Shown here piece by piece: positions 4,071 through 28,837 of a stretch of DNA of 32,000 nt. Source of the DNA: Acaryochloris thomasi RCC1774 (GTDB lineage Bacteria; Cyanobacteriota; Cyanobacteriia; Thermosynechococcales; Thermosynechococcaceae); assembly GCF_003231495.1 (NCBI RefSeq), contig NZ_PQWO01000002.1:240001-272000 (forward strand). The letters are read 5' to 3'. Numbering within the stretch: position 1 is the stretch's first letter; every line of letters starts with the position of its first letter. The position numbers and the translations under genes were made by a program. The notes below the pieces were generated by a model that was not told the origin of the DNA, ran no database searches, and was given only the letters and a program-made list of their open reading frames with translations.

Positions 4071-5360
4071 TTACGGATTAAGATAATCGGTTCGAGTTCC
4101 CTTGGCGGTGACGGCGGCTCCAATTCGGTTGAGGGCATGAACATAGGCGGCGGTTCGCACTGAAATGCCTTGCTGCTGAGAAATCTGCCAAATTGCCTGG
4201 GTCTCAGCGACCATTTTCTCCTGAAGCTGCCCTTGCACCTGCGCTTCTTCCCAATAGAGGCCGCTGCGGTTTTGCACCCATTCAAAGTAGCTGACGGTGA
4301 CGCCCCCGGCATTGACCAAGATATCTGGAAAGACCAGAATATTGTTCTGCTCCAGAATGGCGTCGGCGGCAGAGGTGATCGGGCCGTTTGCCACTTCAAA
4401 GATGTAGCGAGCCTCAATCTGATCGGCGTTCTCTGCGGTGATCTGGCGCTCTAAAGCGGCTGGAATCAAAATATCCACCTCTAGCTTTAGCAGATCTTCA
4501 TTGGTGATCACCTGATGCTCAACTAGGCTACAGACCGTTCCTTCGCAATACACCGCCTGGATTCCACGACTGGCCTCTTTCTGCTGGCGAATACTAGGAA
4601 TGTCTAATCCCTGTGGTGCATAGATGCCGCCTCTAGAATCGCTGACCGCCACAATTCGATAGCCTGCGGCAGCAAGCTGGGAGGCGACGACTGCGCCCGC
4701 ATTGCCAAAGCCCTGAACGGCAACGGTGGTCTCAGAAGGTACCAAGTCTAACTGGGACTGCAGGGTCTCAATGACATAAAACGCGCCGGTGCCGGTGGCG
4801 CTATTGCGTCCCTGGCTGCCCCCAAGGGCCAGGGGTTTGCCCGTGACGACACCTCGGCAAACTTGTCGCTGAATGATGCTGTACTGATCCATCATCCAGC
4901 CCATGATCATAGGGTTGGTGTAGACATCTGGAGCCAGAATGTCGATGTCGGGACCGATAAAATCTGCGATCGCATCTACATATCCACGGCTTAACCGCTC
5001 TAGCTCCATCTTCGAGAGCGCCTTGGGATCGACGGTGATCCCGCCCTTGCCACCGCCGAAGGGCAGATTCAGTGCCGCACACTTAAAGGTCATCCAGAAT
5101 GCGAGGGATTGCACTTCATCGGGAGAGACATTGGGGTGGTAGCGCACGCCCCCCTTAGCAGGACCACGGGTATTGTCGTAGCGCACCCGATAGCCCTGAA
5201 AAATTTGCAGCGACCCGTCATCCATCCGCACCGGTATTGAGATGCTGAGGCTGGCTTTTGGATAGCTCAAAGAGGTGAGAACATCGTCAGGCAGATCAAC
5301 GTACTTCAACGCCAACTGCAGGCGCTGGCTAGCATCGTCAAAAAGGCGATTGTTGGTCAT
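4071..5360 (-). CDS. gdhA: Glutamate dehydrogenase (Glu/Leu/Phe/Val dehydrogenase family)
   Basis: 429 aa. KGGVRYHP, catalytic-Lys glycine-rich motif LPFGGGKGGI, and Rossmann VAVQGFGNAGAV. Confidence 0.92.
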   Translation of the reverse strand: MTNNRLFDDASQRLQLALKYVDLPDDVLTSLSYPKASLSISIPVRMDDGSLQIFQGYRVRYDNTRGPAKGGVRYHPNVSPDEVQSLAFWMTFKCAALNLPFGGGKGGITVDPKALSKMELERLSRGYVDAIADFIGPDIDILAPDVYTNPMIMGWMMDQYSIIQRQVCRGVVTGKPLALGGSQGRNSATGTGAFYVIETLQSQLDLVPSETTVAVQGFGNAGAVVASQLAAAGYRIVAVSDSRGGIYAPQGLDIPSIRQQKEASRGIQAVYCEGTVCSLVEHQVITNEDLLKLEVDILIPAALERQITAENADQIEARYIFEVANGPITSAADAILEQNNILVFPDILVNAGGVTVSYFEWVQNRSGLYWEEAQVQGQLQEKMVAETQAIWQISQQQGISVRTAAYVHALNRIGAAVTAKGTRTDYLNP

Positions 5361-6527: not shown

Positions 6528-7337
6528 ATGAACCGATTAATGCATTGGAGCCTCATTGCCACATTAGCCGGAAGCGGAGTTGTGGTGCCTTCTGTGACTC
6601 GCAATATGACTGCGATCGCAATTCCCGAAGCTGATGTTCTCAAGCGTCTAGAGCGCGTCCCTGTTTTCACCGTCACCGATCCGAAAGGGACCCCTGTCTT
6701 GGCCTCTCTGCCCAACCCGCAGGATAAGAGCAAGCAAATTCAAGTGGCCTATTTCTTCATGGGCCAAACCGATGCTCAGGCTCTGGTGACAAAGCTGAAG
6801 GCCGATAAGCCAGAGATTGGTAAAGATGCCAAAGTTGTCACGCTTTCTTTGAAGGAAGCCTACAACATCCAGAACGAGAACAAAGACAAGAAAGATCAGC
6901 TTGCTTTCCAGTTTTTGCCGACCCAGCAGCAGCTAGAGTCTGCTCAAGCTGTGTTGACCAAAAACGGTCTAGATCCAAAGAAGTTTACGGGTATTCCGCT
7001 GTTCTACGCCGTTGGTGGCAAAGATAAGGGACTTTTGACCCTACAGCAGGGTGAAGAGAAAGTGATTCCTTTCTACTTCAGTCAGAAGGATCTGGAGGGG
7101 ATGTTGGCGCAGCTTAAGAAGCAGGACGCGAAGCTGAGCGAAAGCACGACGGTTTCGGTGACTTCCCTCGATCGAGTGGTGGGGTCGCTGTTCAAAGAGA
7201 AAGGCGGTGAAATTGAGCAGATTGCCCTGATTCCTTCTCAAGAATCGCTCAAGTACGTGGTGGAGCAGAATAAGGCCAATGGTGGTGCTGCACCGGGCGC
7301 GGCGGCTCCTGAAAAGAAAGAAGAAGAGAAAAAGTAA
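6528..7337 (+). CDS. Tic22-like periplasmic/thylakoid-lumen chaperone family protein
   Basis: Signal peptide. The motif typical of Tic22 proteins appears twice: VPVFTVTDPKGTPVL...AYFFMGQTDAQALVTKLK and IPLFYAVGG...VIPFYFSQKDLEGMLAQLKK. Lys/Glu-rich tail. Confidence 0.7.
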   Translation: MNRLMHWSLIATLAGSGVVVPSVTRNMTAIAIPEADVLKRLERVPVFTVTDPKGTPVLASLPNPQDKSKQIQVAYFFMGQTDAQALVTKLKADKPEIGKDAKVVTLSLKEAYNIQNENKDKKDQLAFQFLPTQQQLESAQAVLTKNGLDPKKFTGIPLFYAVGGKDKGLLTLQQGEEKVIPFYFSQKDLEGMLAQLKKQDAKLSESTTVSVTSLDRVVGSLFKEKGGEIEQIALIPSQESLKYVVEQNKANGGAAPGAAAPEKKEEEKK

Positions 7338-8701: not shown

Positions 8702-9784
8702 ATGGAAGTTGGTGTTCCGAAAGAAATTAAAGACCAGGAATACCGGGTGGGACTGACGCCCGGTAGCGTTCGTGTTCTGAGCGAAGCAGGGCATCGGGTT
8801 TTTGTTGAAACGTTAGCCGGTGACGGTTCTGGTTTTGACGATCAGGATTATATAGAGGCGGGAGCCAAGATTGTGGCCACGGCATCCGAAGCCTGGAGTC
8901 GAGAGCTTGTGATTAAGGTCAAGGAGCCACTCACTGCAGAATACGGATTTCTCCGTGCGAACCAGATTCTGTTTACCTATCTCCATTTGGCGGCCAATCG
9001 AGAGCTAACGGAGGCGTTGCTAGAAGCGGGAGGCGTTGCGATCGCATATGAATCCGTAGAACTCCCCTCGGGAGCCTTTCCTTTACTTAGCCCTATGAGC
9101 GTGATCGCGGGTCGGCTTTCCATTCAGTTTGGGGCTCACTTTCTAGAGCGACAGCAGGGTGGACGCGGTGTGCTGTTGAGCGGTATTCCTGGCGTCAAAT
9201 CGGGTCACGTCGTTATTCTTGGTGGTGGGGTGGTGGGCACAGAAGCCGCCCGTATTGCCCTGGGTATGGGCGCACAGGTCACAATTCTCGACATCAACGT
9301 CGAGCGATTAGCTTACCTAGAGACCTTATTTGGTTCCCAAGTAGAACTGCTTTACAGCACGTCACAGTCCATTGCTGAAGCGGTACCCGCAGCAGACCTT
9401 GTGGTGGGTGCCGTCCTTGTCCCTGGGAAAAAGCCGCCGACGCTTGTATCACGCCAGCTAGTTGAGAGAATGCGACCCGGTTCAGTGATTGTCGATGTTG
9501 CGGTTGATCAGGGGGGCTGCATTGAAACCCTCAAGGTTACATCCCACAGCAGCCCCACCTATACCAAAGCGGGCGTCGTTCATTACGGCGTTCCTAATAT
9601 GCCGGGGGCTGTTCCGTGGACGGCAACGCAAGCTCTGAATCACAGTACGCTGCCCTATATACTTCAGCTAGCGAACCAGGGGCTGACGGCATTGGAGAAA
9701 AATGCCTCGCTTGCGAAGGGACTCAACGTCAAAAATCATCAGCTTCTGCATCCAGCCGTACAGGAAGTTTTTCCTGATTTATAG
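8702..9784 (+). CDS. ald: Alanine dehydrogenase
   Basis: 360 aa. N-terminus MEVGVPKEIKDQEYRVGLTP. Rossmann VVILGGGVVGTEAARIALGMGAQVTILD. ...HYGVPNMPGAVP. Confidence 0.92.
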   Translation: MEVGVPKEIKDQEYRVGLTPGSVRVLSEAGHRVFVETLAGDGSGFDDQDYIEAGAKIVATASEAWSRELVIKVKEPLTAEYGFLRANQILFTYLHLAANRELTEALLEAGGVAIAYESVELPSGAFPLLSPMSVIAGRLSIQFGAHFLERQQGGRGVLLSGIPGVKSGHVVILGGGVVGTEAARIALGMGAQVTILDINVERLAYLETLFGSQVELLYSTSQSIAEAVPAADLVVGAVLVPGKKPPTLVSRQLVERMRPGSVIVDVAVDQGGCIETLKVTSHSSPTYTKAGVVHYGVPNMPGAVPWTATQALNHSTLPYILQLANQGLTALEKNASLAKGLNVKNHQLLHPAVQEVFPDL

Positions 9785-10699: not shown

Positions 10700-13435
10700 T
10701 TACTGTGCTTCACCCATCAGCATAAAGGCCGCCCAGTCTTTGGGATTGGGGTGCTGCTGACGCGTGATCAGCATGGCTTGGCGTAGAGCCTGGGCTTTAT
10801 TGAGAGTAGATTTCTGGCGATAAAATTCCGTCATCAGTGCTGCGGTGGGGGCATCAGGAACTGACCATAGCGAAACGACGATGCTTGGGGTGCCTGCTGC
10901 CATAAACGCCCTGGCTAAACCGACGACGCCATCGCCCGTAATGGTTCCGATTCCAGTGTTACAGGCACTGAGAACAACGAGGTTGGCCTGGAGTCTGAGA
11001 TTGATGATTTCGGCGGTGGTGAGGAAGCCATCGGTGCTGGAAAGGGGAGCCGAAGGGGATGAGGGAGCCATGCTGGCAGAAGAGGGGGTGAGGGCAATCG
11101 CGCCGGGGGTATCTAGGCTGAGTTCATCTAGGAGGCCGTGGGTTGCCAGGTGGATGGTGCTGGCAGTGGTCATCTGTTGAACGACAGCGGTTTCTGTCGC
11201 TGCAGGGCCAATGAGGGCTTGCGTGTTGAGGAGAGTTGCGATCGCAACTGCTTCCTGCTCAGCTCCGGGCAATGGTGTGAGGGGCTGCCGTCTTGAACCC
11301 ACTTGAATGGAAGGCATCTGGGGATTGCCAACCACGAGGCTTTCGCCAGGACCGGACGGAGCTTTGCGCTGTTCTCGCGTGAAGGCTAGCAGTTGAATCG
11401 AGGGCGAACTGACCAGCGTGTGCTTTAGAATCAATGGCCCCTCATCACTCTGGAGCGCGGGGAAGGGCACCAGAAAGAGTTCTCGATGGGGAATGATCAC
11501 AACATGCTGTTCAGGATCGGTGGGCAGCAAATCGGCAATGGGTTCAATCAAAAGTTGATGCAGTTGGCGTAAAGGCGGCGTGCCCGTCTTGTCCGTAGAG
11601 AGATTGGTGGCGACGATAGCAATTCCGCCTCTGTCCTTGATGCCTATTGCTTCCTGAGTTGCCTCAATTAAATCCGGTAGGGACTGATCCGTCAGATCCA
11701 CCGTTCGGAGTTGAATCGCTCCACTGGGAGCAATCACCCAAATCAAAAGCTGATCTTCAAGTAGCGAATACTCGACGAGTGTAGAATCCTGGGCACGGGC
11801 GATGTCTCGTAGTTCCTGGACTGTCAGGGGTGCTTTTGGGGGCCGAGGGTGAGTCGTCTGTGCTTCGAAGCGGGAGGCGAGCAGCTCGATGAAGGCGCGG
11901 GCGCGGCTCCGTTCGGAAACCTCCAAGGCTGCAATATCCTGGCCCTGAGCAATCAGAGCAGATTGCAGGTGCTGATACGTGGCCGCTTGGGTCTCAAAGA
12001 GGGCCACCTGATGCTCATCTGAGAGTCCTGGCCGCAGCGACTCCCAAATCTCAATAGCCTCTAAGAGGTTCGCAGCCGCCTTAGGATACTGCTGAGCTTG
12101 CAAAAGGGCTTGCCCCATATTGTGAAGCGTTAGGCCCATACCGGGCTGATCTGCGGTCCGGCGTTGGATCTCTAGGGCTTGTTCGAAGGTCTGCAGTGCC
12201 CGCTGCATTTGCTCTTGGTCAAGGTAGACCTCTCCCAGATGGTTAAGCGTTGCCCCAATCCCGACCTGATCGTCATGCGTCCGGGCGAGGCTGAGGGCTG
12301 TTGTCAAAGCCTCAATTGCGTTGGAGAGCTTCCCTTGCCTGAAATAGGCCACCCCCCGCGCATCCAGGATCAGGCGTTCACCCCCTGCTTTCCCCGGATA
12401 GCTGGGCGGGAGATATTGGAAGAGCCGCCAGGCTTGTTCGAGGGAGGCCAGCGCCTGAGGTGATCTCCCTTGCTGGATTTGAATCCGAGCAAGGCGATGG
12501 TGCAATAATCCTTCTTCTTTGGGGTGTTCATACAGCCCTCCATCAAATCGGAGTGGGTTTTGGGTCTGGAGGGTTGCGATCGCATCCTCTAAAACTCGTC
12601 CTGCCTTGTCATATTGCCCCAAGCGCTCGTAGGCAGAAGCCAAGCTAGTTAGCGAGATCCCAATCCCTTCTTGATCCTCAATCTCACGCTGCAGCGTCAA
12701 TGCGCGTTGGTAATAAGTGAGCGCCTGAGGATACTGACCGAGCTGTAAATAGAGAGTCCCTAACTGATGCAGACAGTCCCCTTGGCGCTGTAGGTCGCTA
12801 TCTTGCTGATAGATTGCGAGTGCCTGCTGAAAGAGAGACAAAGCCGTCTGAAGATTTCCCCGCTGGCTCTGCTGCTCTGCCCTCGTGTAGATCTCTTGCC
12901 CCGCATCAGAGAAAAGACAGACTGTCGCAGGCTTCACCGGACAGACCTTCGGGTTGATCGGATTCGTGAGGAGATTTAGCAACCGGAGATGCTTAAGACT
13001 TGCCAGTTTACTCACCTCTCGAACCTGATTTTGCTCAAGCACCACATATTCCAGATTCGTTAGCTTCGCTAAGGGACGGATATCCTGAATCTGATTGAAG
13101 GCCAGATTGAGATGTTTCAGTTGCGGGAGCGTCACTAGGGGAGTGATGTCTGTGAGTTCTTGATTAATCAAATCTAGGCTGAGTTGAGTCTCAAGAACTT
13201 GCTCCGCCTGCCGACAATCTGTTGTCGCTGCGACCTGGAGCATTGCCATGATCGTCCGCTGCTGAGCAATTGAAAACTGATCTTGCTCTCTACACCAATC
13301 GGTAAAACGATTTGACTGCGAAGGGGCTGCATTTAGCTTCTCGAGACCTAGTCCTGATCCCATCGCCAACAGCAGTATTCCAGCCCACTGAGCAACCAAC
13401 ATTGCCGCACAGCGACTGCGCCTTCCCCTCTTCAT
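10700..13435 (-). CDS. Secreted LRR - TPR - CHAT domain protein (caspase-like protease fold)
   Basis: Signal peptide. About four LRRs: LDLINQELTDITPLVTLPQLKHLNLAFNQIQDIRPLAKLTNLEYVVLEQNQVREV... About 8-9 TPR-like repeats with recurring ALxxYQQAL / LGxxY patterns. C-terminal CHAT domain with the His/Cys dyad context IHLATHG and LVVLSACNTG. Confidence 0.85.
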   Translation of the reverse strand: MKRGRRSRCAAMLVAQWAGILLLAMGSGLGLEKLNAAPSQSNRFTDWCREQDQFSIAQQRTIMAMLQVAATTDCRQAEQVLETQLSLDLINQELTDITPLVTLPQLKHLNLAFNQIQDIRPLAKLTNLEYVVLEQNQVREVSKLASLKHLRLLNLLTNPINPKVCPVKPATVCLFSDAGQEIYTRAEQQSQRGNLQTALSLFQQALAIYQQDSDLQRQGDCLHQLGTLYLQLGQYPQALTYYQRALTLQREIEDQEGIGISLTSLASAYERLGQYDKAGRVLEDAIATLQTQNPLRFDGGLYEHPKEEGLLHHRLARIQIQQGRSPQALASLEQAWRLFQYLPPSYPGKAGGERLILDARGVAYFRQGKLSNAIEALTTALSLARTHDDQVGIGATLNHLGEVYLDQEQMQRALQTFEQALEIQRRTADQPGMGLTLHNMGQALLQAQQYPKAAANLLEAIEIWESLRPGLSDEHQVALFETQAATYQHLQSALIAQGQDIAALEVSERSRARAFIELLASRFEAQTTHPRPPKAPLTVQELRDIARAQDSTLVEYSLLEDQLLIWVIAPSGAIQLRTVDLTDQSLPDLIEATQEAIGIKDRGGIAIVATNLSTDKTGTPPLRQLHQLLIEPIADLLPTDPEQHVVIIPHRELFLVPFPALQSDEGPLILKHTLVSSPSIQLLAFTREQRKAPSGPGESLVVGNPQMPSIQVGSRRQPLTPLPGAEQEAVAIATLLNTQALIGPAATETAVVQQMTTASTIHLATHGLLDELSLDTPGAIALTPSSASMAPSSPSAPLSSTDGFLTTAEIINLRLQANLVVLSACNTGIGTITGDGVVGLARAFMAAGTPSIVVSLWSVPDAPTAALMTEFYRQKSTLNKAQALRQAMLITRQQHPNPKDWAAFMLMGEAQ

Positions 13436-16954: not shown

Positions 16955-17218
16955 CTAGCCTCTGTAGTCTCGTTTCAGTTCGTGTAGAGCTTTGTCTGCA
17001 CACCAAGCCCGCGATCTATCGGGGTGCTTCTGGGCAGCATGATTAATCAGACGTTCAGCCGTTGATGGCCCCACTCGCTTTCTGAGTTGTCTTTCACTGG
17101 CGCTCGTTCCTGAGGTCGATCGCTTTCCTGGCCGATGGCGGGACTGATTTTGCCCCGAGGTGTAGGTTGCCAGCATCCATCCAATGACGATGAATGCTAA
17201 CAAAATGACCCACAACAT
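16955..17218 (-). CDS. Small single-pass membrane protein, hypothetical
   Basis: With ATG at 17218 the product starts directly with a TM helix (MLWVILLAFIVIGWMLATY). A basic linker and a C-terminal AERLINHAAQKHPDRSRAWCADKALHELKRD block follow. The track start (17245) is a TTG. Confidence 0.45.
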   Translation of the reverse strand: MLWVILLAFIVIGWMLATYTSGQNQSRHRPGKRSTSGTSASERQLRKRVGPSTAERLINHAAQKHPDRSRAWCADKALHELKRDYRG

Positions 17219-17436
17219 GGCTTGATTTATCCCTAATAAGTTCAATAAATGCCGATCTCAGCACCGGTAAAGGGGAACTGAGTCACTGATCTTAGGGTGG
17301 ACGGCTTCCCTTTAGATTCCGACACTTTGACTGGAGTTGAAATAAAACCTTTGCTCAAACATAACGGTGTAGTAAGAATGGATCGGTCAAGCTTTGCTGG
17401 ATCCTGTCCCCTTTACCGAGATTGCGAGAAGCGCTA

Positions 17437-17793
17437 ATGTCTCTAACTGTTTACGGCATTCCTACCTGTGGCACCTGCAAAAAGGCGATCCAGTGGCTAG
17501 AGGCTCATAACGTGGCCTACGAGTTTATTAATACTAAGGATCACCCGCCGTCAAAGCAGCAGATTCAGGACTGGGTGAGCGCACTGGGTTCCAAGCCCAT
17601 GCGGAATACTTCTGGCAAGTCCTATCGAGAGATCGGAGAAGAGAAAAAAGACTGGACTGATGCCCAGTGGGTGGATGCCTTTGCCCAAGATGCGATGCTG
17701 CTCAAGCGTCCGCTGTTTGTTAAAGATGGCACCGCTGTCCTCGTTGGTTTCCGGGCTTCAGAAGATATGATTCAGCAAGCGTTAGGATTATAG
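17437..17793 (+). CDS. ArsC/Spx/YffB-family thiol reductase-like protein
   Basis: N-terminal YGIPTCGTCKKA redox motif and ...LLKRPLF... typical of the family. I prefer ATG at 17437 over the track's TTG at 17422. Confidence 0.8.
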   Translation: MSLTVYGIPTCGTCKKAIQWLEAHNVAYEFINTKDHPPSKQQIQDWVSALGSKPMRNTSGKSYREIGEEKKDWTDAQWVDAFAQDAMLLKRPLFVKDGTAVLVGFRASEDMIQQALGL

Positions 17794-17812
17794 GCGACTG
17801 TTCATTTGATGT

Positions 17813-17846
17813 GGACACAGCGAATAGGGAAACTCCTGCTGTGTCC
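17813..17846 (+). terminator. 9-bp-stem hairpin between the ArsC-like gene and Anbu (terminator or 5'-UTR element)
   Basis: GGACACAGC (17813..17821), a 16-nt loop, GCTGTGTCC (17838..17846). There is no clear U-tract, so the function is uncertain. Confidence 0.3.
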
Positions 17847-17890
17847 TGTTCATCGCATGGAGTCTGCACACCTTCTTTGGAGTTTCCTGT

Positions 17891-18679
17891 ATGACCTATT
17901 GCCTCGGAATCAAGACCCATTTTGGCTTGGTGATGGCTGCTGACTCATTAACCAATGCCGGAGTGGATTACGTTTCAAAGGTACAAAAGCTGTTTGACTT
18001 TTCTCGACCTGGAGAGCGGGTCATTTTGATTAGCAACGCTGGTAATCTGTCCATGACCCAGAACGTTTTAACGCTGGTGCGGCGGGATATCAAGAATCAG
18101 GCAGAAAATGACATCTACGATCTGCCGACGATGTTTGAAGTGGCTCAGTACCTGGGCAAGAGAGTCCGTGACGTCGCCGATCAGAATCGAAACTGGATGC
18201 AGCAGGACAAGATTGACTTCTCCTGTAGCTTTTTGTTGGGGGGACAAATCAAGGGAGAAGCGCCAGAGCTATACATGATTTACAGTCAAGGGAACTTCTT
18301 GCGGGCGACCAAGGAGACACCCTATTTGCAAATTGGCGAAATTAAATACGGCAAGCCGATTCTAGATCGCACCATTAGCTATGAGACTCAGTTGGACGAT
18401 GCTGCTAAGTGCGCCCTTCTCTCGCTAGATTCCACTATGAAATCGAATATTTCTGTTGGCCCCCCCATTAATATGGTGATGTACGAGACCGATAGCCTTG
18501 AGATTGTCCATCAGGTCAAATTCTTTGACGCTGATCCCTATTTAAATAAGATTCGCCAATCTTGGGAGCAATCCGTCAAGCAGGCTTTTCAGCAGTTGCC
18601 GAGTCCAGATTGGCAACGGGTCGATACCCGCGAGCAAGAAGATAACTGGCTATCTCCCAGCAATATTATTCCTGATTAG
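17891..18679 (+). CDS. Anbu: proteasome-beta-like Ntn-hydrolase ('ancestral beta subunit' peptidase)
   Basis: It starts MTYCLGIK..., so removal of the initiator Met exposes Thr1 with no propeptide. Asp sits at mature position 17 (AADS) and Lys at about 32. Size is ~260 aa. GGAG lies 10 nt upstream of the ATG. The genomic context includes ATP-grasp, alpha-E and transglutaminase genes. Confidence 0.85.
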   Translation: MTYCLGIKTHFGLVMAADSLTNAGVDYVSKVQKLFDFSRPGERVILISNAGNLSMTQNVLTLVRRDIKNQAENDIYDLPTMFEVAQYLGKRVRDVADQNRNWMQQDKIDFSCSFLLGGQIKGEAPELYMIYSQGNFLRATKETPYLQIGEIKYGKPILDRTISYETQLDDAAKCALLSLDSTMKSNISVGPPINMVMYETDSLEIVHQVKFFDADPYLNKIRQSWEQSVKQAFQQLPSPDWQRVDTREQEDNWLSPSNIIPD

Positions 18680-18720
18680 ATGCCCCTGAGCACCGCAGTA
18701 TCTGCAGAGAGGAATGAGGA

Positions 18721-19440
18721 ATGCCAACAGGAATAGTCGCTTTCTTGCTTGTCTTCCTTCTAGTAGCTGGGATCTGTTACTTCACACTGTTTTACCCCCA
18801 AGCGAAAGTGAAGAGGATCAAGAAGAATCTGGTTCTCAGGGTTAAGGGAGCAGATGCTCGCTACTCTGATCTCCCTCTGGGAGATTTAGGTCTGTTTTAT
18901 GAAGTCAAAGATAGGAGTAGGGTTCGTGTCGTACTGCCAAGGCTAACTCCAGACGGAGATGTTCAATATATTTACTCTTGGCACAACCTCAAATCGATAA
19001 GTATTCCGACTCTAAGCAATACAAAAGCTCAGACAGCAGGAAACTTTGGGGCATTGCTGGGCCTCGCGCACATGATTGATGAGCATATAAGATTTGTTGA
19101 GCCAGAGATTTTAAGCCTTAGAAGCCAGTGGCAAGAGATCAATGAATTGCTCGGCTTGGTCACTACATCAGATCTTTATGCTAGCCAACAGGGAATTTAT
19201 GAGCGTGCGCTTGTACAAGTTGAGAATTTACTCGATAAAGCAGAAGAACTAGAGCAAGTCTATATCCGCTTCATTCGAGAAGCTTTGATTAGCAGAAAGC
19301 TGGGCAACTACGATCCAGGCTCACTTCCAAGCAATAGCCTAATGATAGATACGAAGTATCAAAAAATTAAGGAGGAATATCAATATATGAAGGATATGGC
19401 AACCGCCTATGCTGAACTACGAGACATGCATCGTCTCTAG
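18721..19440 (+). CDS. Hypothetical membrane-anchored protein with a C-terminal coiled-coil region (no family recognised)
   Basis: 239 aa. N-terminal TM helix IVAFLLVFLLVAGICYFTLF, a beta-rich middle, and a helical Q/E/K-rich end. A strong GAGGAATGAGGA purine tract lies just before the ATG, 41 nt after the Anbu stop. Confidence 0.65.
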   Translation: MPTGIVAFLLVFLLVAGICYFTLFYPQAKVKRIKKNLVLRVKGADARYSDLPLGDLGLFYEVKDRSRVRVVLPRLTPDGDVQYIYSWHNLKSISIPTLSNTKAQTAGNFGALLGLAHMIDEHIRFVEPEILSLRSQWQEINELLGLVTTSDLYASQQGIYERALVQVENLLDKAEELEQVYIRFIREALISRKLGNYDPGSLPSNSLMIDTKYQKIKEEYQYMKDMATAYAELRDMHRL

Positions 19441-20276
19441 ACTATGAGCTTAATGGATACTTCTGTTGTGAGTGTGGTGGCGCAACCAGAACGATGGGTA
19501 CCTGACACTGGCACGGTACTGCGAGGCTGATAGCTGGTTACTAAAGCAACATGGCGATCGCAAGTCACAAGTCCCAACGTCGGGTCATACCCTCGCCAAC
19601 CGGCACCGGGTAAATAAACCTCAGCCCAAGCATGGAGCGTTTGCTCGCAGGCCGGATCTCCCTGCTCATAGCCGCTGACAAAACGGGCGGCTAAACCCGC
19701 GGCTCGACACGCGGCCATAAATAGGACCACAAAATCACGACAGGATCCCGTTTTTCGACCCCAGGTGATCTCAGGAGGCCAGGGTGGACCTGTGGGACGT
19801 TCTTGATAGTCACACTGATCATAGATGCGCTGATTTAAGGTCGAGAGAAACTCTACTGTATTCCAGTCAACGGCCACTGCGATCTCGTGGGCCAGTTGAG
19901 TGGCAGCCGGAGCGCTGGTGTGGTCTAGATAAGGTGCAAGTGCGGTTCTGATGGAGCTGGGGTAGTCGATGGGGCCTTCGGTGGCCCAGGGCTCCAACAG
20001 ATAATTGAAGGGGTTGGTGATGTGAGTCGTAACGGTTGAGATGGCTGTAATGCTCAGGGTTGCCGTCGATTGAGGGGACCACCAACACTTTGCGATCGCA
20101 TCTCCCTCGGCATCCAATAACTGCGTTATCTCCAGCGGATTGGGTTCCACCTGTAGCTGATATGAATCTAGGCTTTGAAAGCCATCTGACCGAGGACGCA
20201 GGCGCAAAACATGAGGTTCTAAGATTGCCGGTTGCGCGTAGGTGTACCGAGTGACGTGACTAATTTGATACCGCAC
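19437..20276 (-). CDS. Transglutaminase-like cysteine protease-fold protein (Bact_transglu_N + transglutaminase core)
   Basis: N-terminus: MRYQISHVTRYTYAQPAILEPHVLRLRP. Catalytic Cys: GSCRDFVVLF. His: HAWAEVYLPGAGW. Asp: GYDPT. GTG start 2 nt after the alpha-E stop. Confidence 0.88.
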   Translation of the reverse strand: MRYQISHVTRYTYAQPAILEPHVLRLRPRSDGFQSLDSYQLQVEPNPLEITQLLDAEGDAIAKCWWSPQSTATLSITAISTVTTHITNPFNYLLEPWATEGPIDYPSSIRTALAPYLDHTSAPAATQLAHEIAVAVDWNTVEFLSTLNQRIYDQCDYQERPTGPPWPPEITWGRKTGSCRDFVVLFMAACRAAGLAARFVSGYEQGDPACEQTLHAWAEVYLPGAGWRGYDPTLGLVTCDRHVALVTSYQPRSTVPVSGTHRSGCATTLTTEVSIKLIV

Positions 20277-20278
20277 GC

Positions 20279-21319
20279 CTAATAACTCTGTGGGGTAGCG
20301 AAGGTTTGGCTTTGGTTCTGGCCCTGGCCTTGGCTCTGGCTTTGACTCTGAGGCGCAGCCGTGGTCTCTAGCGGCGGCAGGGCAAAAAATGTTTCATAGA
20401 TGCCATTATTGACCTCGTTCATGGACTGCTGCAGTTGATCCAAAAACTCATGGATACCCCGATCGATAATCTCATCGATCATCAAGTATTCCATTTCAGA
20501 ACGGAGGCGACCCAGCGAGCGCTCAATGGGGATATGCCAAGACCCTAGGGGCGTACCGGTGATCCGATGGAGAGACTGCTCGGCCTGCCAGAGGCAAAAC
20601 TGAACCGACCGTGGAAATTCTGGATCGAGGATCAGAAAACCTGAAACCCCCGCCGGAGTGATGCGATGTTGCTGGCTGCTCTGACGGTACATTTCATAGG
20701 CACTGGCCGATTTTAAGAGGGCCATCCATCCGAGTTCGTCGAGGAGTGTCCCGACATCGGTGGCAGAAGGAAGCAACACATAGTATTTGACATCTAGAAT
20801 GCGGGAGGTTTTATCGGCCCGCTCTAAAAAGCGACCCATGCGGCCAAAATGCCAAGCTTCGTTGCGGCTGAGAGTGGCATCCGTGGTGCCGACAAAGGAA
20901 TGACTGGCCTGTTTGACCTGCTCTAAAAAATCACTGAGATCGGATATCGATAAATCCTTAGACGCTTTTGACACCATTTGGTGAGCGGCATTCACCTCAC
21001 TCCACATTTCGGACGAAATAATTTCGCGTACGGAACGGGCATTCTCTCGGGCCATCTGCCAGCAGGAGAAAATCGAGTTGGGATATTGCTGATCAAAGGT
21101 GAGAAACTGAATGACGTTCTCTGCGGTCGCTTCGCCGTAATGCTGTTCAAAGAAAGCGCGATCGCCTGTTGTGGTTACTAATGGCTGCCACTGCTGCTCA
21201 ATTCCGGTGGGAATATCCAGCATCAGATTGATGTTGACTTCTAGAAATCGAGCGACGTTTTCAGCGCGCTCAATATAGCGATTGAGCCAGTAAATTGAAT
21301 TGGCAACGCGACTAAGCAT
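20279..21319 (-). CDS. Alpha-E domain protein (DUF403 type)
   Basis: Begins MLSRVANSIYWLNRYIERAENVARFLEVN, the canonical alpha-E opening. All-helical, 346 aa. The C-terminal tail is PQSQSQSQGQGQNQSQTFATPQSY. Confidence 0.88.
   Translation of the reverse strand: MLSRVANSIYWLNRYIERAENVARFLEVNINLMLDIPTGIEQQWQPLVTTTGDRAFFEQHYGEATAENVIQFLTFDQQYPNSIFSCWQMARENARSVREIISSEMWSEVNAAHQMVSKASKDLSISDLSDFLEQVKQASHSFVGTTDATLSRNEAWHFGRMGRFLERADKTSRILDVKYYVLLPSATDVGTLLDELGWMALLKSASAYEMYRQSSQQHRITPAGVSGFLILDPEFPRSVQFCLWQAEQSLHRITGTPLGSWHIPIERSLGRLRSEMEYLMIDEIIDRGIHEFLDQLQQSMNEVNNGIYETFFALPPLETTAAPQSQSQSQGQGQNQSQTFATPQSY
20306..20350 (-). repeat. Hexanucleotide (CAR-NNC)n coding repeat giving (Gln-X) x 7.5
   Basis: Minus strand: CAG AGT CAA AGC CAG AGC CAA GGC CAG GGC CAG AAC CAA AGC CAA = QSQSQSQGQGQNQSQ. 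Confidence 0.8.
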
Positions 21320-21467
21320 TTTGGATCGAACTCTCTTATGGGCGTAAATTAGGCATCTTGCACTAGTCCCTCGGCCTGTGAGAATCGGGGGGCTGGCTTC
21401 GACGTGAGCGGAGTCGAATGGGGGGCCAAGTGCAGAAACTTTCGCCCATCCATGCAGGAATAGTTCT

Positions 21468-22901
21468 TTACTCGCACAGAACCCAGGTATCTTTGCTACC
21501 GCCCCCTTGAGAGGAGTTTACGACTAGAGACCCTTTTTTCAATGCCACCCGCGTCAGTCCCCCTGGATGAACGTAAATATCTTGGCCGTAGAGAATGTAG
21601 GGGCGCAAATCGACGTGACAGCCGACGAACTCCTGTTCCAGAATGGTGGGGACGCGAGAGAGACAGAGAGTGGGCTGGGCGATATACTTTCGCGGATTGG
21701 CTTTAATCTTTTGGGCAAATTCTTCCCGTTCAGCTTGGGTTGACTGGGTACCCACCAGCATTCCGTAGCCACCGGATTCATCGGCAGATTTGACCACGAG
21801 CTGATCGAGGTTTCCTAAAACATGGTCTAACTGTTTAGGTTCCCAGCAGAGATAGGTGGGGACGTTGGCTAAAATCGGGTCTTCACCCAGGTAATAGCGA
21901 ATCATGTTAGGGACGAAAGCGTAGATCACCTTGTCGTCAGCGATGCCGGTGCCGAGAGCATTTGCGATCGCAACTCTCCCTTCTCGATACACCTGCATTA
22001 ACCCCGGCACCCCCAGCAGCGAATCTGCCTGAAACTCTAGGGGGTCAATAAAGGTGTCGTCAATGCGGCGATAAATCACGTCAACCCGCTGCAGTCCTTG
22101 GGTGGTCCGCATTTGCAGGTGTCCATCTGCCACTACTAGATCGCGACCCTCTACCAGCTCCACGCCCATCTGTTGCGCCAGATAGGAATGCTCAAAATAG
22201 GCCGAGTTATAGATCCCCGGCGTCAGGACCACCACGGTTGGGTGAGCAATATTTTCGGGGACCAGATGCAGCAGCGTATTGAGTAGTTGGCTGGGGTATC
22301 CATCCACTGGCTGAATCGGGATCTCTTCAAATACCTGCGGGAAGGTGCTTTTCATCACCCGTCGGTTTTCCAGCACGTAGGAAACCCCTGAAGGGCAGCG
22401 CAAATTATCTTCAAGAACATACCACTGGCCGTTGCGATCTCGGACTAGATCAGACCCCGTGATGTGGCACCAAACGCCCTCAGGTGGATTCAAGCCCATG
22501 CAGGGCTTCTGAAACCCCGTTGCCGAGAGAATCAGCTCCGCCGGAATCTTGCCATCTTTGATGATTTTTTGATCGTGATAGATGTCGTCAATAAAGAGGT
22601 TTAGGGCATGAATCCGCTGCTTTAGCCCTGTTTCTAAATGACGCCACTCCTGAGCCGAGATGATGCGGGGGATGACGTCGAAGGGAAAGATGCGATCGCT
22701 TCCTTGATTGTCGCCGTAGACTCCAAACGTCGCCCCGAGTTTGAAGAGTGCCTGCTGAGCCGCCTGCTGTCGCTGTAGCAGCTCCCCTGGGCCAAGCTGA
22801 TGGATACGGTCTACGAGAGCAGCTCCTGCCGGTCTTGGCTGATCGGCTGATTGAAACAGTTCATCGTAGAAGTTATCTAATTCATAATTGTCAAATCGCA
22901 A
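21468..22901 (-). CDS. Circularly permuted type-2 ATP-grasp protein (DUF404/DUF407 type amidoligase)
   Basis: 477 aa. FPFDVIPRII, GSDLVRD..G.WYVLEDNLRCPSGVSYVLENR, and the C-terminal LTRVALKKGSLVVNSSQGGGSKDTWVL signature I associate with this family. Confidence 0.9.
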   Translation of the reverse strand: MRFDNYELDNFYDELFQSADQPRPAGAALVDRIHQLGPGELLQRQQAAQQALFKLGATFGVYGDNQGSDRIFPFDVIPRIISAQEWRHLETGLKQRIHALNLFIDDIYHDQKIIKDGKIPAELILSATGFQKPCMGLNPPEGVWCHITGSDLVRDRNGQWYVLEDNLRCPSGVSYVLENRRVMKSTFPQVFEEIPIQPVDGYPSQLLNTLLHLVPENIAHPTVVVLTPGIYNSAYFEHSYLAQQMGVELVEGRDLVVADGHLQMRTTQGLQRVDVIYRRIDDTFIDPLEFQADSLLGVPGLMQVYREGRVAIANALGTGIADDKVIYAFVPNMIRYYLGEDPILANVPTYLCWEPKQLDHVLGNLDQLVVKSADESGGYGMLVGTQSTQAEREEFAQKIKANPRKYIAQPTLCLSRVPTILEQEFVGCHVDLRPYILYGQDIYVHPGGLTRVALKKGSLVVNSSQGGGSKDTWVLCE

Positions 22902-23034
22902 AACTCACGCTCTTCATTGATATGCAGCACTTTGCCTAGATCTATTACAGAGGCCACTGTCCACCCTATCTGTATTGATAGATACGGATGTTAGACAACT
23001 CATGTGCCAGAACGAGAGACCGAATTGTGATCGG

Positions 23035-23751
23035 TCAGCTCAAGTCTTCTTCTGAGATCCCTTCAGATCGTAACCGTGCTAATAGCTTTTCTACATGCTG
23101 TTGAGCGTCATCAGCACGCTGCCGCTCTGCTTCAGCTCTTTCATCATCTGACAGATAACGGTCACCTTGACTGTCATACCAAGCCAAAAGTTCTTGCTTG
23201 ATGCCACCCATCACCTGCTCCGATCTGCCGATGCCTAGGCCCACTTCCGGCATCCAGTAGGGTTCGCCAATTTGAAGTTTGTAGCTGCCGTTCACCAGCT
23301 TGTAGACTTCGAAAGGCTGATGCCGATCCCGCTGCCAAAATTCAGGGTTATAGATGATGTAATACAGCACGCCCAGATTGGCATAGAGAGACTGTTTTGC
23401 CTCGTATTCGCCACCGGGTTGGTGAGACACCATTTCTAACGCCAAAATGGGGACTGTGCCCTCCTCTTCCCAGACGGCATAGCTTTTGCGAGATTTACCT
23501 CCCTTCTTTCGCTCAACACCTAAACTCAAAAAGGCGTCGGGTACCACAGGAACTCTGGGATTAATGCCAGTGGTGTGATAAATCGCCATATCTACGCCGA
23601 AGTACCAGTCCATGCGCTCGGACCAAATACTGCACAGCAGAAAAAGCAGCAGGTTCGGCAGTAAATTCTGATCTTCGTTGTCCACTGGGGTGTCGTCAGA
23701 GCAGGGTAGTTCGTCGGTGCTGGGCAATTGATTTAGGTCAATCTGAAGCAT
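23035..23751 (-). CDS. Uma2-family (DUF820) putative endonuclease
   Basis: PD-(D/E)xK-like core: VVPDAFLSLG...ILALEMVS...K...Y. The C-terminus has the coiled coil common in cyanobacterial copies. I prefer ATG at 23751 (MLQIDLNQLP...). The track start (23826) would overlap uppP. Confidence 0.8.
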   Translation of the reverse strand: MLQIDLNQLPSTDELPCSDDTPVDNEDQNLLPNLLLFLLCSIWSERMDWYFGVDMAIYHTTGINPRVPVVPDAFLSLGVERKKGGKSRKSYAVWEEEGTVPILALEMVSHQPGGEYEAKQSLYANLGVLYYIIYNPEFWQRDRHQPFEVYKLVNGSYKLQIGEPYWMPEVGLGIGRSEQVMGGIKQELLAWYDSQGDRYLSDDERAEAERQRADDAQQHVEKLLARLRSEGISEEDLS

Positions 23752-23794
23752 GGAACCAACCTCAAATGTCTTGACTGTATTGTAAGCGATTGAT

Positions 23795-24721
23795 TTATCG
23801 CGGTAGCCAGCCGGTTGCGATCGCACCTAAAATTGCAGCCCCAAACGCCAGCCGATACCAAACAAACACCCAGGTGCTCTGCTGCCGCAGAAACTTGAGC
23901 AGCCAGGCAATAGCCAGATAAGAAAAAATAAACGCTGAGAGAATACCAAACAACAGGGGAATGGCTGCGTCGAGATTCCCTATGACTTTACGAGATTGGA
24001 ACAGCGTTGCCAGCCCTAGAGTTGGCAACCCCAACAAAAAAGAAAAGCGAGCGGCTGTGTCTCTTTTCAGGCCCAGCAGCAACCCTGTGGTCAGCGTGGA
24101 GCCAGAGCGAGAAGCGCCAGGGATGAGGGCCAGCATCTGACCCAAGCCCACGAGTAGACCATCCTTAATCTCTAACTTGTTAAAGTCCCGTAGGCGACGA
24201 CCGGCTTTTTCGGCGATGCCCAGCAAGATCGACATTAGGATAGATGCGATCGCAATGACAAAAGCGCTTTCAGGAATCGAATCCCGGAAAATATATCCAA
24301 TCGTCAGAGCGGGCAGCGTCCCTATTGCGATTCCCAGCAGGATTTTCCATTCCTCACGCTGCCAATCTTTTTGCTGGTAGGCGGCCCAAGACCCAGAAAT
24401 AATTTGCTTCAAATCTGCGCGGAAATAGAGCAGCACTGCAATGACGCTGCCAAACTGAATCGCATCAACAAAATACTTCTCACCTAAGTCTTCCCAACCT
24501 AGCACCTGCGTCACAATTAGAAGGTGGGCCGTACTGCTGATGGGTAAAAATTCCGTAATCCCCTGGACAAGGCCCAATAGGATTGCCTCTAGTGAAGCTT
24601 GAACAACGCCTCTGGAGGCATCCGTAGCTGCCGTGTCTACGGCTAGAGAGAGGGGTGCTTTGGCTAAATTCCAAGTACTACTGATTATTGCGTTTGACAG
24701 GTTTAGCCCTAACCCAATCAT
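23795..24721 (-). CDS. uppP: Undecaprenyl-diphosphate phosphatase
   Basis: GITEFLPISSTAHL and IPGASRSGSTL motifs in a polytopic membrane protein. The N-terminal ~40 aa are extra, so the true start is uncertain. Confidence 0.88.
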   Translation of the reverse strand: MIGLGLNLSNAIISSTWNLAKAPLSLAVDTAATDASRGVVQASLEAILLGLVQGITEFLPISSTAHLLIVTQVLGWEDLGEKYFVDAIQFGSVIAVLLYFRADLKQIISGSWAAYQQKDWQREEWKILLGIAIGTLPALTIGYIFRDSIPESAFVIAIASILMSILLGIAEKAGRRLRDFNKLEIKDGLLVGLGQMLALIPGASRSGSTLTTGLLLGLKRDTAARFSFLLGLPTLGLATLFQSRKVIGNLDAAIPLLFGILSAFIFSYLAIAWLLKFLRQQSTWVFVWYRLAFGAAILGAIATGWLPR

Positions 24722-26722: not shown

Positions 26723-28837
26723 GTGACTAATCCCGAGGAGAATCAACGTCAGCGTTTTCGACATTTGTTTATTGTTGATGACGCTGAGGGACGACGCACC
26801 ATTTCCCTCGAAGCCGCTACCTATTCCATTGGCCGGGATGTCACCAACTCCATCGTGCTGCACTCTAAAATGGTGTCGCGGCAGCACGCTATCTTGCTGC
26901 GGGTTACAGCTCCCGAAACCTCTAATTACTTGTTTCGGATCATTGATGGTGATCTCCAGGGTAAAAGAAGCACCAATGGCCTAATCGTGAATGGTCGCCG
27001 TCTCTTTTCCCATGACCTTAAACATGGTGATGTTGTCGTTTTCGGCGGAGATGTAAAGGCACAGTATTTTGTGGCTTCCAACCTCTCAGATGAAGCCTTC
27101 GACGAGTTCCGCGACACCAGCGACCTCTCCACCATTCTCAAAAATTCCGTCAACCCCTTTCAAACCCTCGTCCCCACAGACGCTGACTTCCAAGATATGA
27201 GCGAAGCCGCCCTCGTCCGGCTGGCCTCTTTCCCCGAACTGACCCCCACTCCGATTCTCGAAATTGATTTGTCCGGCACCGTCACCTATATGAATCCCTC
27301 TGCCGTCATGCAATTTGAGAATTTATCCGAAGCCGGTTTAGCGCACCCTCTCCTAGAAGGACTGCTGACCATGGTGAAAGTGGACAGTCCTGAACAGGGT
27401 AATTTCTTTGTCCGTGAGGTCAGCATCAAGGATTTGGTCTTTGAGCAGTCCGTTCACTACATTTCTGAAAGTGACTTAATTCGCAGCTATATCACCGATA
27501 TTACCGAGCGAAAGCGCGCTGAAGAGCAGTTGCGTCACCAGGCTCAGCGAGAAGCAATCATTAACCGGATTGTGCAGGCTATGCGTGGCACAATGGTCAC
27601 CGCAGAGGTCTTAGATATTACCGTGGGCTTATTGCTAGAAGCCTTGGGGGCCAGTCACTGCCTCATTGTTCCGATTGAATCAGAGAGCGACTCCCCCGTC
27701 TTCTACGCTAGTGACCGATCCGTTGAGCGCCCTGACCTTGTACAGGCAAACGAGCGATTTTTGCGCAATTCTCAAGACTCTCTTGCTCAGGGGCAGCAGG
27801 TGGTGTTTGAAAGCGGCGATACGTCACTTGCGCTAGAGCTGCAGGCTATCTGCGATCAGTGTCAGATTCAAACCCTCCTGTTAACGCCGCTTCTCTATAT
27901 GCAGCGGTATCTGGGCAGCATTAGTCTCTATCAATGTGGGCCATCAACCAAAGAAGCCCGCCAGTGGAATCTAGATGAGCTCAACCTCGTTGAAACCATT
28001 GCCAATCAGTGTGCGATTGCGGTTCATCAGGCCCAGCTTTATCGTCAAGTCCAAGATCTCAACACTGACCTAGAGCGGCAGGTCGAAGAGCGCACCGCTC
28101 AGCTGCAGCAAAAAATGCAGGAGCTTGAACGCCTGAACATTCTTAAAGACGACTTTCTCAGCACTGTCTCCCATGAGCTGCGAACGCCCATGTCTAATAT
28201 CAAAATGGCGATCCATATGCTCAATCAGTTTCCTCTCGAAGATCGACAAACCCGTTACGTCAAGATTTTAGAAGCTGAATGTAGCCGCGAAACTGAACTC
28301 ATCAACGACCTCCTAGATCTGCAGCGCTTAGAAGCAGATACCGAACCGATGCCTTTAGAAATGTTGGTGTTGTCCGAGTGGTTAGCCGGTGTGCTAGAGC
28401 CCTTTCAATCTAGGGCCCGCGATCGCAAGCAACATCTAAACATTCACTGCGATCCCGAAGCCGTGGCGGTGCAGTCCAATCGCGTTAGCCTGGAACGAAT
28501 TTTAGCTGAGCTGCTCAATAATGCCTGCAAATATACCCCTGATGGTGGCGATGTGTACTTCAATATTGAACGTTTGCAGAACCCTGACCCCTTTGTCCGT
28601 TTTCAGGTGACCAACCAGGCGGAAATTCCTGCCTCTGAGCTGCCTCGCATTTTCGATAAATTTTATCGAGTGCCCAACGCCGACCCCTGGAAGCAGGGTG
28701 GAACAGGTCTCGGGCTGGCTCTTGTTGAAAAGCTAGTCGAACAGCTCCAGGGCAATATCAACGTCACCAGTTCCCAAGGACAGACGACGTTCACTATCGA
28801 GCTACCCCAGCCAGAAACGGTCTCGGTTGAGGTGTAA
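26723..28837 (+). CDS. Sensor histidine kinase with N-terminal FHA domain: FHA - PAS-like - GAF - coiled coil - HisKA - HATPase_c
   Basis: FHA: SIGRDVTNSIVLHSKMVSRQHAILLRV...STNGLIVNGRR...GDVVVFGG. PAS cap: SFPELTPTPILEIDLSGTVTYMNPS. GAF-like region at ~280-440. H-box: VSHELRTPM. N/G boxes: LLNNACKYTP...GGTGLGLALV. GTG start per the track. Confidence 0.9.
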   Translation: MTNPEENQRQRFRHLFIVDDAEGRRTISLEAATYSIGRDVTNSIVLHSKMVSRQHAILLRVTAPETSNYLFRIIDGDLQGKRSTNGLIVNGRRLFSHDLKHGDVVVFGGDVKAQYFVASNLSDEAFDEFRDTSDLSTILKNSVNPFQTLVPTDADFQDMSEAALVRLASFPELTPTPILEIDLSGTVTYMNPSAVMQFENLSEAGLAHPLLEGLLTMVKVDSPEQGNFFVREVSIKDLVFEQSVHYISESDLIRSYITDITERKRAEEQLRHQAQREAIINRIVQAMRGTMVTAEVLDITVGLLLEALGASHCLIVPIESESDSPVFYASDRSVERPDLVQANERFLRNSQDSLAQGQQVVFESGDTSLALELQAICDQCQIQTLLLTPLLYMQRYLGSISLYQCGPSTKEARQWNLDELNLVETIANQCAIAVHQAQLYRQVQDLNTDLERQVEERTAQLQQKMQELERLNILKDDFLSTVSHELRTPMSNIKMAIHMLNQFPLEDRQTRYVKILEAECSRETELINDLLDLQRLEADTEPMPLEMLVLSEWLAGVLEPFQSRARDRKQHLNIHCDPEAVAVQSNRVSLERILAELLNNACKYTPDGGDVYFNIERLQNPDPFVRFQVTNQAEIPASELPRIFDKFYRVPNADPWKQGGTGLGLALVEKLVEQLQGNINVTSSQGQTTFTIELPQPETVSVEV

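Follow-up and report, generated by a model that had tools for sequence, protein, structure and literature searches.

The bacterial proteasome homologue Anbu was named in 2008 by Valas and Bourne, who found that, in cyanobacteria and proteobacteria alike, its operons associate it with COG2307, COG2308 and a transglutaminase (PMC3235984). A role in peptide synthesis or tagging was proposed for this gene set by Iyer et al. in 2009, as summarised in PMC5666114 and PMC6376114, and Anbu homologues are known to assemble into dodecameric split rings of lock-washer shape (PMC5666114, PMC6376114). Here we analysed one such module in a 32,000-nucleotide (nt) stretch of Acaryochloris thomasi RCC1774 DNA (contig NZ_PQWO01000002.1, positions 240,001 to 272,000), which we call the window and to which all coordinates without a locus label refer. 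In it, Anbu is accompanied by genes for a circularly permuted type-2 ATP-grasp enzyme, an Alpha-E protein and a transglutaminase-fold protein (TGase), the last three being called the trio. An earlier note on this stretch had cited both proposals, in agreement with the parts of PMC3235984, PMC5666114 and PMC6376114 that treat them, and had held that no substrate, tag or phenotype was established; our search of the literature, including newer functional work on the module families, likewise gave no substrate or phenotype. We conclude that the locus is probably the ordinary cyanobacterial form of the known Anbu/ATP-grasp/Alpha-E/transglutaminase module, a judgement weighted mainly on architecture, and that the trio is a predicted target of the nitrogen regulator NtcA.

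The proteobacterial Anbu operons of Yersinia bercovieri, Pseudomonas aeruginosa and P. putida hold the same four families as the window, and a link to nitrogen limitation, predicted for the window, is common to both. They differ in layout, since Anbu in the window is convergent with the trio on the opposite strand whereas outside cyanobacteria it is mostly the last gene of a single co-directional operon (23 of the 35 non-cyanobacterial loci described below). They also differ in the regulator, which in the window is predicted to be NtcA and not NtrC/sigma54, and the window has in addition two passenger genes and a Leu in place of Arg at Anbu position 19. In Burkholderia cenocepacia, I35_5080-5083 comprise the same ligase-side genes, reportedly under NtrC control, with no adjacent Anbu. 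The Anbu loci of A. marina MBIC11017, Chamaesiphon, Trichocoleus desertorum, Oxynema and Lyngbya confervoides and the Synechocystis sll0335 operon share the layout of the window, its TGase-AlphaE-ATP-grasp order and its NtcA box. Compared with the other cyanobacterial Anbu loci, only the window has an orphan gene between Anbu and TGase, and Leu19 is confined to the window and two relatives. The trio-only operons of Planktothrix and Leptolyngbya FACHB-261 contain the ligase-side genes and the NtcA box as in the window, with no adjacent Anbu. The Pup-proteasome and HslVU contain a proteasome-family Thr1 hydrolase, as the window does, and in the Pup system a proteasome-family protease is likewise accompanied by an ATP-dependent amide ligase. 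Unlike them, the Anbu module is without an AAA+ partner, a tag gene, a closed chamber or demonstrated peptidase activity (PMC6376114, PMC8665760). The resemblance is one of logic only, and we claim no membership.

The five open reading frames (ORFs) listed in the earlier note were all recovered, in position and in strand, and its family assignments (CP_ATPgrasp_2, Alpha-E, Bact_transglu_N, Transglut_core and Proteasome) were borne out by a Pfam search. The ATP-grasp (21468..22901, 477 aa), Alpha-E (20279..21319, 346 aa) and TGase (19437..20276, 279 aa) genes form one tightly packed minus-strand operon, in which the ATP-grasp gene comes first and starts with TTG. The GTG start of the TGase gene, read directly, lies 2 nt past the Alpha-E TAG, as had been noted. 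Anbu (17891..18679, plus strand, 262 aa), a proteasome-like N-terminal nucleophile (Ntn) hydrolase, appears from the sequence to be a separate transcription unit, convergent with the trio and devoid of an NtcA-type box. It is followed on the same strand by the orphan gene C1752_00808 (18721..19440, 239 aa), which has no family match and whose TAG stop shares the tetranucleotide CTAG (19437..19440) with the TGase stop, CTA on the plus strand. Because the two stops share these bases, the window offers no intergenic room for a terminator between the convergent units. A promoter and terminator scan of 17000-23200 returned counts at chance level (9 versus 6.0±2.6; 8 versus 4.8±2.3). All four module genes are under strong purifying selection, with ratios of nonsynonymous to synonymous substitution (dN/dS) of 0.02-0.12 at dS of 1.0-1.6 relative to the two closest relatives of the window, loci L001 and L002, whose Anbu is 93-94% identical.

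The window proteins were mapped onto 80 genomic loci encoding relatives of the window Anbu, 45 cyanobacterial and 35 non-cyanobacterial (L046-L080); four further cyanobacterial loci were picked via ATP-grasp, not via Anbu. A locus was scored as convergent if the genes after Anbu were TGase-AlphaE-ATP-grasp, encoded on the other strand, and as solitary if at least 4 kb downstream of Anbu contained no trio. Among the 45 cyanobacterial loci, 25 were convergent, 12 had a solitary Anbu, 7 were too short to judge and 1 was odd; leaving out those too short, 25 of 38 informative loci were convergent, including Acaryochloris, Thermosynechococcaceae, Lyngbya confervoides, Chamaesiphon and Synechococcales. 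Two of the four loci picked via ATP-grasp were convergent as well (Trichocoleus, with a 6-nt gap, and Oxynema, with a 21-nt gap), and the other two, Planktothrix and Leptolyngbya FACHB-261, had the pair or the trio with no adjacent Anbu. Thus, the earlier note expected rightly that Anbu and the trio would be linked in cyanobacterial neighborhoods, as they are in most loci, and was mistaken in taking the opposite-strand Anbu for a special variant: the convergent arrangement is the cyanobacterial norm. Clustering of the ORFs around cyanobacterial Anbu genes revealed no fifth conserved neighbor beyond the trio. The description of the locus as a standard Anbu module is, on architectural grounds, very likely to be right, and we count the module as already known because its layout is typical of the phylum and its genes already carry family-name annotation in public records.

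The convergent units lie close together. Their Anbu and TGase stops are 2-135 nt apart in all but the loci of the A. marina type, in which another gene occupies the gap. In L001, L002 and L010, tblastn coordinates place 2 nt between the last codons of Anbu and TGase, and in most other loci the gap between the coding regions is 6-70 nt. With a spacing of 2 nt, each transcript must either overlap the other at its 3' end or stop within the opposing gene. In L001 the same CTAG appears to join the two stops (approximately 6604-6607, by our reading of the alignment).

Because the trio is nitrogen regulated in proteobacteria, we looked, as set beforehand, for an NtcA box upstream of both units. NtcA sites are defined by the sequence GTAN8TAC, strict in its GTA and TAC, and usually lie at -41.5 from the transcription start site (PMC5714215). 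The sole perfect match in the window, the predicted NtcA-binding box GTATCTATCAATAC (22972..22985, minus strand), falls within the 133 bp that precede the ATP-grasp start and begins 84 nt upstream of the TTG. A perfect box was present 73-95 nt upstream of the ATP-grasp start in 19 of the 20 Anbu-picked cyanobacterial loci with enough sequence, and also in all four loci picked via ATP-grasp (at -68, -76, -84 and -214), that is, in 23 of 24 cyanobacterial loci overall against a background of 0.045 per 300 nt. As a control, 29 upstream regions of non-cyanobacterial ATP-grasp genes yielded one box, and of 47 regions upstream of Anbu just 2 contained one. Within the box, the outer GTA and TAC never change and the bases between them vary freely; the extended consensus is GTATC-N5-ATACAGTT. 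In the window, L001 and L002, the box is followed after 22 nt by the -10-like hexamer TGTAAT (22944..22949, minus strand, read from the upstream sequence), in which position 2 is G and not A; in the Acaryochloris loci, TAAGAT is found 24 nt downstream of the box. Recent common descent does not account for the conservation of the box, since dS exceeds 1 even for the closest pair. We infer that in cyanobacteria the trio, but not Anbu, is a predicted NtcA target. Our coverage of the literature, which was short of complete, contained no paper stating NtcA control of the trio operon, and the conserved box is possibly a new observation.

Published data from other organisms are in line with nitrogen control. 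Expression of the trio is 8-9-fold NtrC/sigma54 dependent in B. cenocepacia (PMC5491218), and in P. putida the trio is among the genes most induced under nitrogen limitation (note added in proof, PMC3235984). The module domains co-vary with urea metabolism in marine metagenomes (PMC3597751). In a Microcystis field study, genes of uncertain orthology annotated as 'transglutaminase family' fall together with nblA, urt and glnA after addition of ammonium or urea (PMC13485200). A crude sigma54-type pattern was found upstream of 2 of 29 non-cyanobacterial ATP-grasp genes and was uninformative.

Several points weigh against nitrogen control of a functionally coupled module. The 24 loci scored for the box are related by descent, and the -10 spacing is canonical (a TAN3T box some 22 nt downstream) only in Acaryochloris-type loci (22-24 nt). 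The other clades show no clear -10 at this spacing, and by our reading of the sequences the best -10-like hexamer of Chamaesiphon lies farther off. The Synechocystis ATP-grasp orthologue, identified as sll0335 from the name on P0152, is missing from Table 2 of PMC5714215, which gives 79 direct early NtcA targets for 4 h of nitrogen starvation. Valas and Bourne report that several stresses, nitrogen starvation not being one of them, failed to induce Anbu in Synechocystis (PMC3235984). Coupling of Anbu and trio is not obligatory, because 12 of 38 informative loci have no trio nearby and two of the four ATP-grasp-picked loci have no Anbu. Finally, in vitro work has detected neither peptidase nor amidase activity of Anbu, nor a complex of it with the other operon proteins (PMC6376114, PMC5666114).

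The GTAN8TAC element might serve another factor of the CRP family, or be a different RNA or DNA element, in which case the trio would not be nitrogen regulated. The absence of sll0335 from that table of the early direct regulon fits this explanation, as do the -10 spacing of some clades and an extended consensus that exceeds the minimal NtcA one. We nevertheless consider it quite unlikely, as the strict GTA and TAC are the signature of NtcA itself (PMC5714215), the fixed distance between box and start codon permits a class-II position with a short 5' untranslated region, the orthologous promoters outside cyanobacteria almost always lack the box, and induction of the same operon by nitrogen limitation is documented, via NtrC, in two proteobacteria.

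Alternatively, cyanobacterial Anbu might be independent of the trio, its adjacency a historical remnant, so that a constitutive general peptidase would stand beside an unrelated set of genes under nitrogen control. The uneven distribution of the box between the ATP-grasp and Anbu genes argues in this direction, as do the solitary Anbu genes and the Planktothrix and Leptolyngbya FACHB-261 loci. Consistent with it, no physical interaction was seen in Y. bercovieri (PMC6376114), and co-expression with the operon proteins left the form of P. aeruginosa Anbu unchanged (PMC5666114). We regard independence as fairly unlikely, however: convergent adjacency, with gaps often of 2-70 nt, has been kept in Acaryochloris, Thermosynechococcaceae, Chamaesiphon, Synechococcales, Lyngbya, Trichocoleus and Oxynema despite saturated synonymous sites, and proteobacteria and planctomycetes also link genes of these four families, though ordered and oriented differently. 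Linkage that recurs in this way would be difficult to account for if the genes had no function in common.

The convergent layout could also mean that trio and Anbu are wired antagonistically in cyanobacteria, which we think very unlikely. Transcription of an NtcA-driven trio operon would then meet Anbu head-on, the junction leaving no space for a terminator, and nitrogen starvation would generate antisense RNA across Anbu (in A. thomasi across the orphan, then Anbu), lowering Anbu when the ligase side is induced. If so, Anbu would remove or edit the product of the trio instead of acting downstream of it.

The Anbu protein matched Pfam Proteasome (E=4e-8) and gave full-length phmmer matches to all five distinct solved Anbu sequences, 5loy, 5nyw, 5lox, 5nyj and 5nyf (E=3e-78 to 8e-61), its residues 2-242 aligning with residues 1-240 of the solved chains, including the C-terminal helical extension. 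It begins with Met-Thr at the earliest possible start codon of the ORF, so a propeptide is impossible. Thr1 follows the initiator Met in 45 of 45 cyanobacterial loci, and Asp17 and Lys32, which align with catalytic residues of solved Anbu, are kept in 80 of 80 loci. At position 19 (Thr1 numbering, in the motif DSRTN), 78 of 80 loci carry Arg, as do Trichocoleus and Oxynema, and the window, L001 and L002 carry Leu; this is codon 20 (17948-17950), in the substrate-binding strand beside the catalytic Asp17. Arg19 is a conserved position and not a formal defining feature of Anbu. Because Leu19 is held under a dN/dS of 0.02-0.03 relative to the closest relatives, it represents a stable clade-specific variant and not decay. 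Of the earlier note's view that Anbu is catalytically competent, the missing propeptide and the intact Thr1, Asp17 and Lys32 stand, and competence is predicted with the qualification that a near-invariant Arg has been replaced by Leu. In 7 of the 35 non-cyanobacterial homologues, Ser and not Thr follows the initiator Met, which suggests a Ser1-nucleophile variant of Anbu.

The ATP-grasp protein (COG2308) matched CP_ATPgrasp_2 over profile positions 1-374 of 374 (E=7.6e-173, 575 bits against a cut-off of 32) as well as CP_ATPgrasp_1 (9e-151), and is close to the solved member PDB 3n6x (E=5e-168). It is 53-58% identical to proteobacterial orthologues, with a dN/dS of 0.02-0.04. The Alpha-E protein (COG2307, PF04168; dN/dS 0.03-0.06) matched its Pfam family over positions 1-294 of 294 (E=7.5e-104, 348 bits), and its translation shows two ER motifs, IERAEN and LERADK; a search of PDB sequences found no solved structure of a relative. 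The TGase protein matched Bact_transglu_N (3.7e-21) and Transglut_core (2e-19), both above the gathering score, and aligned through the catalytic core of TgpA 6g49 and of 3isr. Its triad, Cys179/His215/Asp231, is kept in 26 of 26 orthologues, and its dN/dS is 0.11-0.12.

The last 25 or so residues of Alpha-E (20282-20356) form a low-complexity Gln/Ser tail, PQSQSQSQGQGQNQSQ..., a clade-specific (Gln-Ser)n stretch that varies in length across the loci of Acaryochloris/Thermosynechococcaceae type (the window, L001, L002, L010, L012, L011 and L006), being reduced to few residues or none in some; the Alpha-E proteins of Chamaesiphon and Synechococcales are without it. Located beside a TGase-fold gene, this Gln-rich tail could be a built-in acyl-donor substrate, or it could be a mere disordered linker.

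ATP-grasp enzymes join a carboxylate to an amine via an acyl-phosphate, transglutaminase-fold enzymes with a Cys-His-Asp triad form or cleave (iso)peptide or amide bonds, and Ntn hydrolases cleave amide bonds. On this basis we tentatively put forward a chain of events, as a possibility, in which the nitrogen-induced trio makes or processes amide-linked adducts and Anbu hydrolyses the same class of products. Under nitrogen limitation NtcA would switch on the trio. With the help of Alpha-E, the ATP-grasp enzyme would then spend ATP on coupling a carboxylate to an amine on a peptide or protein, through an amide or isopeptide bond. The amide-linked products would in turn be cleaved or processed by the TGase-fold Cys enzyme and by the Thr1 hydrolase Anbu, expressed from its own promoter, so that on balance protein or peptide nitrogen would be remodelled or recycled. 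The only activity reported for an ATP-grasp orthologue, that of Y. bercovieri, is the release of inorganic phosphate from ATP (PMC6376114).

The classical explanation, proposed by Iyer et al. in 2009 and by Valas and Bourne in 2008 according to the summaries in PMC6376114 and PMC5666114, is closer to ubiquitin or Pup. The trio would tag proteins with a peptide or amino acid, and Anbu, as a compartmentalised protease, would degrade the tagged ones. The domain logic suits it, as the module joins a ligase and a proteasome homologue with an enzyme of transglutaminase fold. In contrast, no AAA+ ATPase gene is linked to the module among the scanned ORFs of the 32-kb window, leaving it without a linked unfoldase, and ORF clustering brought up no conserved candidate tag gene in the cyanobacterial loci. 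Anbu is moreover an open lock washer and not a closed chamber, proteasome substrates gave no activity (PMC6376114, PMC5666114, PMC8665760), and Anbu and trio have separate promoters here. We thus hold tagging for degradation to be rather improbable.

The orphan gene had been regarded as an extra partner that might show what the protease docks to. According to this idea, it would encode a dedicated fifth component, for instance a membrane anchor, adaptor or regulator docking Anbu, its co-transcription with Anbu marking it as a partner. In favor of this, it starts 41 nt past the Anbu stop, in the same direction and with its own GAGG ribosome-binding site. The protein, 100% identical to hypothetical protein C1752_00808 of A. 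thomasi RCC1774, belongs to a real and well-conserved family, restricted to cyanobacteria, of 51 clusters with 34-64% identity and 28 invariant columns. Its AlphaFold model is confident (predicted local distance difference test score 86.8) and combines an N-terminal transmembrane helix with a soluble part made of a small beta domain and three long helices. In addition, some Nostocales homologues follow a fusion of an Alr1449 domain with an M16 peptidase, a second protease-adjacent context.

The comparative context nevertheless largely refutes a fifth component, which we judge exceedingly improbable. None of the 80 Anbu loci has a homologue of the orphan, even at E<=10, and ORF clustering leaves the trio as the sole conserved neighbors of Anbu. 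A three-way DNA alignment with L001 and L002 shows a clean indel of approximately 760 bp that holds exactly the orphan gene, with TAGA at both edges; in these relatives the Anbu stop abuts the TGase stop within the same flanking synteny, L001 sharing the window's GT4, o96, ArsC-like and UppP genes. The G+C content at third codon positions (GC3) of the orphan is 0.429, compared with 0.536-0.586 in Anbu, TGase, Alpha-E, ATP-grasp, ArsC-like, Uma2, UppP and GT4. In eight other cyanobacterial contexts, none of the orphan homologues had Anbu, ATP-grasp, Alpha-E or TGase nearby. In Nostocales, the homologue sits directly after an Alr1449-domain gene, sometimes fused to M16 peptidase, and outside Nostocales, homologues sit amid HicAB, HigB, PemK, recombinase, methylase and Uma2 genes. 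The same junctions also take other, unrelated insertions. Together, these data argue that the orphan is a lineage-specific single-gene passenger insertion of foreign composition and not a component of the module, and with an unlinked passenger that shows no conservation as a fifth partner, the docking idea is unsupported.

The Alr1449-domain (PF27270) gene ends 10-54 nt upstream of the orphan homologue in L081 (7369-8714), L085 (7413-8702), L086 (650-2887), L087 (2057-4294) and L092 (5369-6561), and in Nostocales it takes two forms, one stand-alone (192 aa) and the other carrying a fused Peptidase_M16 pair (508 aa). It may be the real conserved partner of the orphan family. Searches of the orphan against Pfam, NCBIfam, PADLOC, PHROGs and PDB sequences (phmmer and profile) produced no match, the best PDB and family hits being at chance level (YajC, 0.14, on the transmembrane helix; a designed protein, 0.038). 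Foldseek searches with the model were likewise without a significant hit, the best E values being 0.068 in the PDB (TM-score at most 0.33) and 0.019 among viral models (TM-score 0.35). A defence or phage gene was considered and rejected, as neither PADLOC nor PHROGs lent support.

Other loci of this kind have also received insertions. In A. marina-type loci, the Anbu-TGase gap holds a lipoprotein-like gene (L012, 10806-11369, minus strand; L008, 1252-1932, minus strand) with a signal peptide ending in ...SACSS; as this gene is unlike the orphan, the junction has been hit independently. In the window, a Uma2-family gene (23035..23826, minus strand) upstream of the ATP-grasp promoter region is absent from the syntenic L001 and is a second single-gene passenger insertion specific to the A. 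thomasi lineage. It lies just upstream of the promoter with the NtcA box, which is left intact, and shares 32 nt with the 3' end of the UppP gene (23795-24721). A spacing of 0.9-2.6 kb separates the ATP-grasp and Alpha-E genes of Chamaesiphon, with co-directional Uma2 genes in the sampled gaps (L039, 12732-15095; L037, 5098-6932; L031, 8089-8694), two of which also contain a GNAT-toxin/TacA-antitoxin pair, apparently inside the operon. These co-directional ORFs were considered as extra module components and rejected, being Uma2 genes and the GNAT/TacA toxin-antitoxin pair.

The window is otherwise ordinary chromosome, encoding a response regulator, an FHA-PAS histidine kinase, glutamate dehydrogenase, an FKBP, a Tic22-like protein, alanine dehydrogenase, a CHAT-TPR protein, a DUF3122 protein, fructosamine kinase, CP12, a GT4 glycosyltransferase, an Spx/ArsC-family protein, UppP, an amine oxidase-like protein, a second histidine kinase of FHA-GAF type and CheW/MCP-like proteins. 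Scans of the window for Rfam families, tRNAs and tandem repeats found none. The two kinases look paralogous (FHA-PAS-HisKA-HATPase, 1847-3898, minus strand; FHA-GAF-HisKA-HATPase, 26723-28837, plus strand), and the response regulator gene (1157-1840) adjoins the first. Two nitrogen-metabolism genes, for glutamate dehydrogenase (4071-5360, minus strand) and alanine dehydrogenase (8702-9784, plus strand), are located 8-14 kb from the module, a linkage not seen in other loci; the stretch separating them from the module includes a gene for a 911-aa LRR-TPR-CHAT protein (10700-13435, minus strand).

What the Anbu module does has been a question since 2008, and it bears on the origins of proteasomes and on bacterial protein modification. 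The window does not bring the answer nearer as first hoped, because the supposed extra partner is a passenger gene. The NtcA box, however, predicts that the ATP-grasp/Alpha-E/transglutaminase operon, and not Anbu, belongs to the nitrogen-starvation regulon of cyanobacteria, in parallel with the NtrC control of its proteobacterial counterparts. If NtcA control is confirmed, nitrogen step-down would be the condition under which to seek a substrate and a phenotype. The box also raises the question of why Anbu would be transcriptionally uncoupled from the trio in this phylum.

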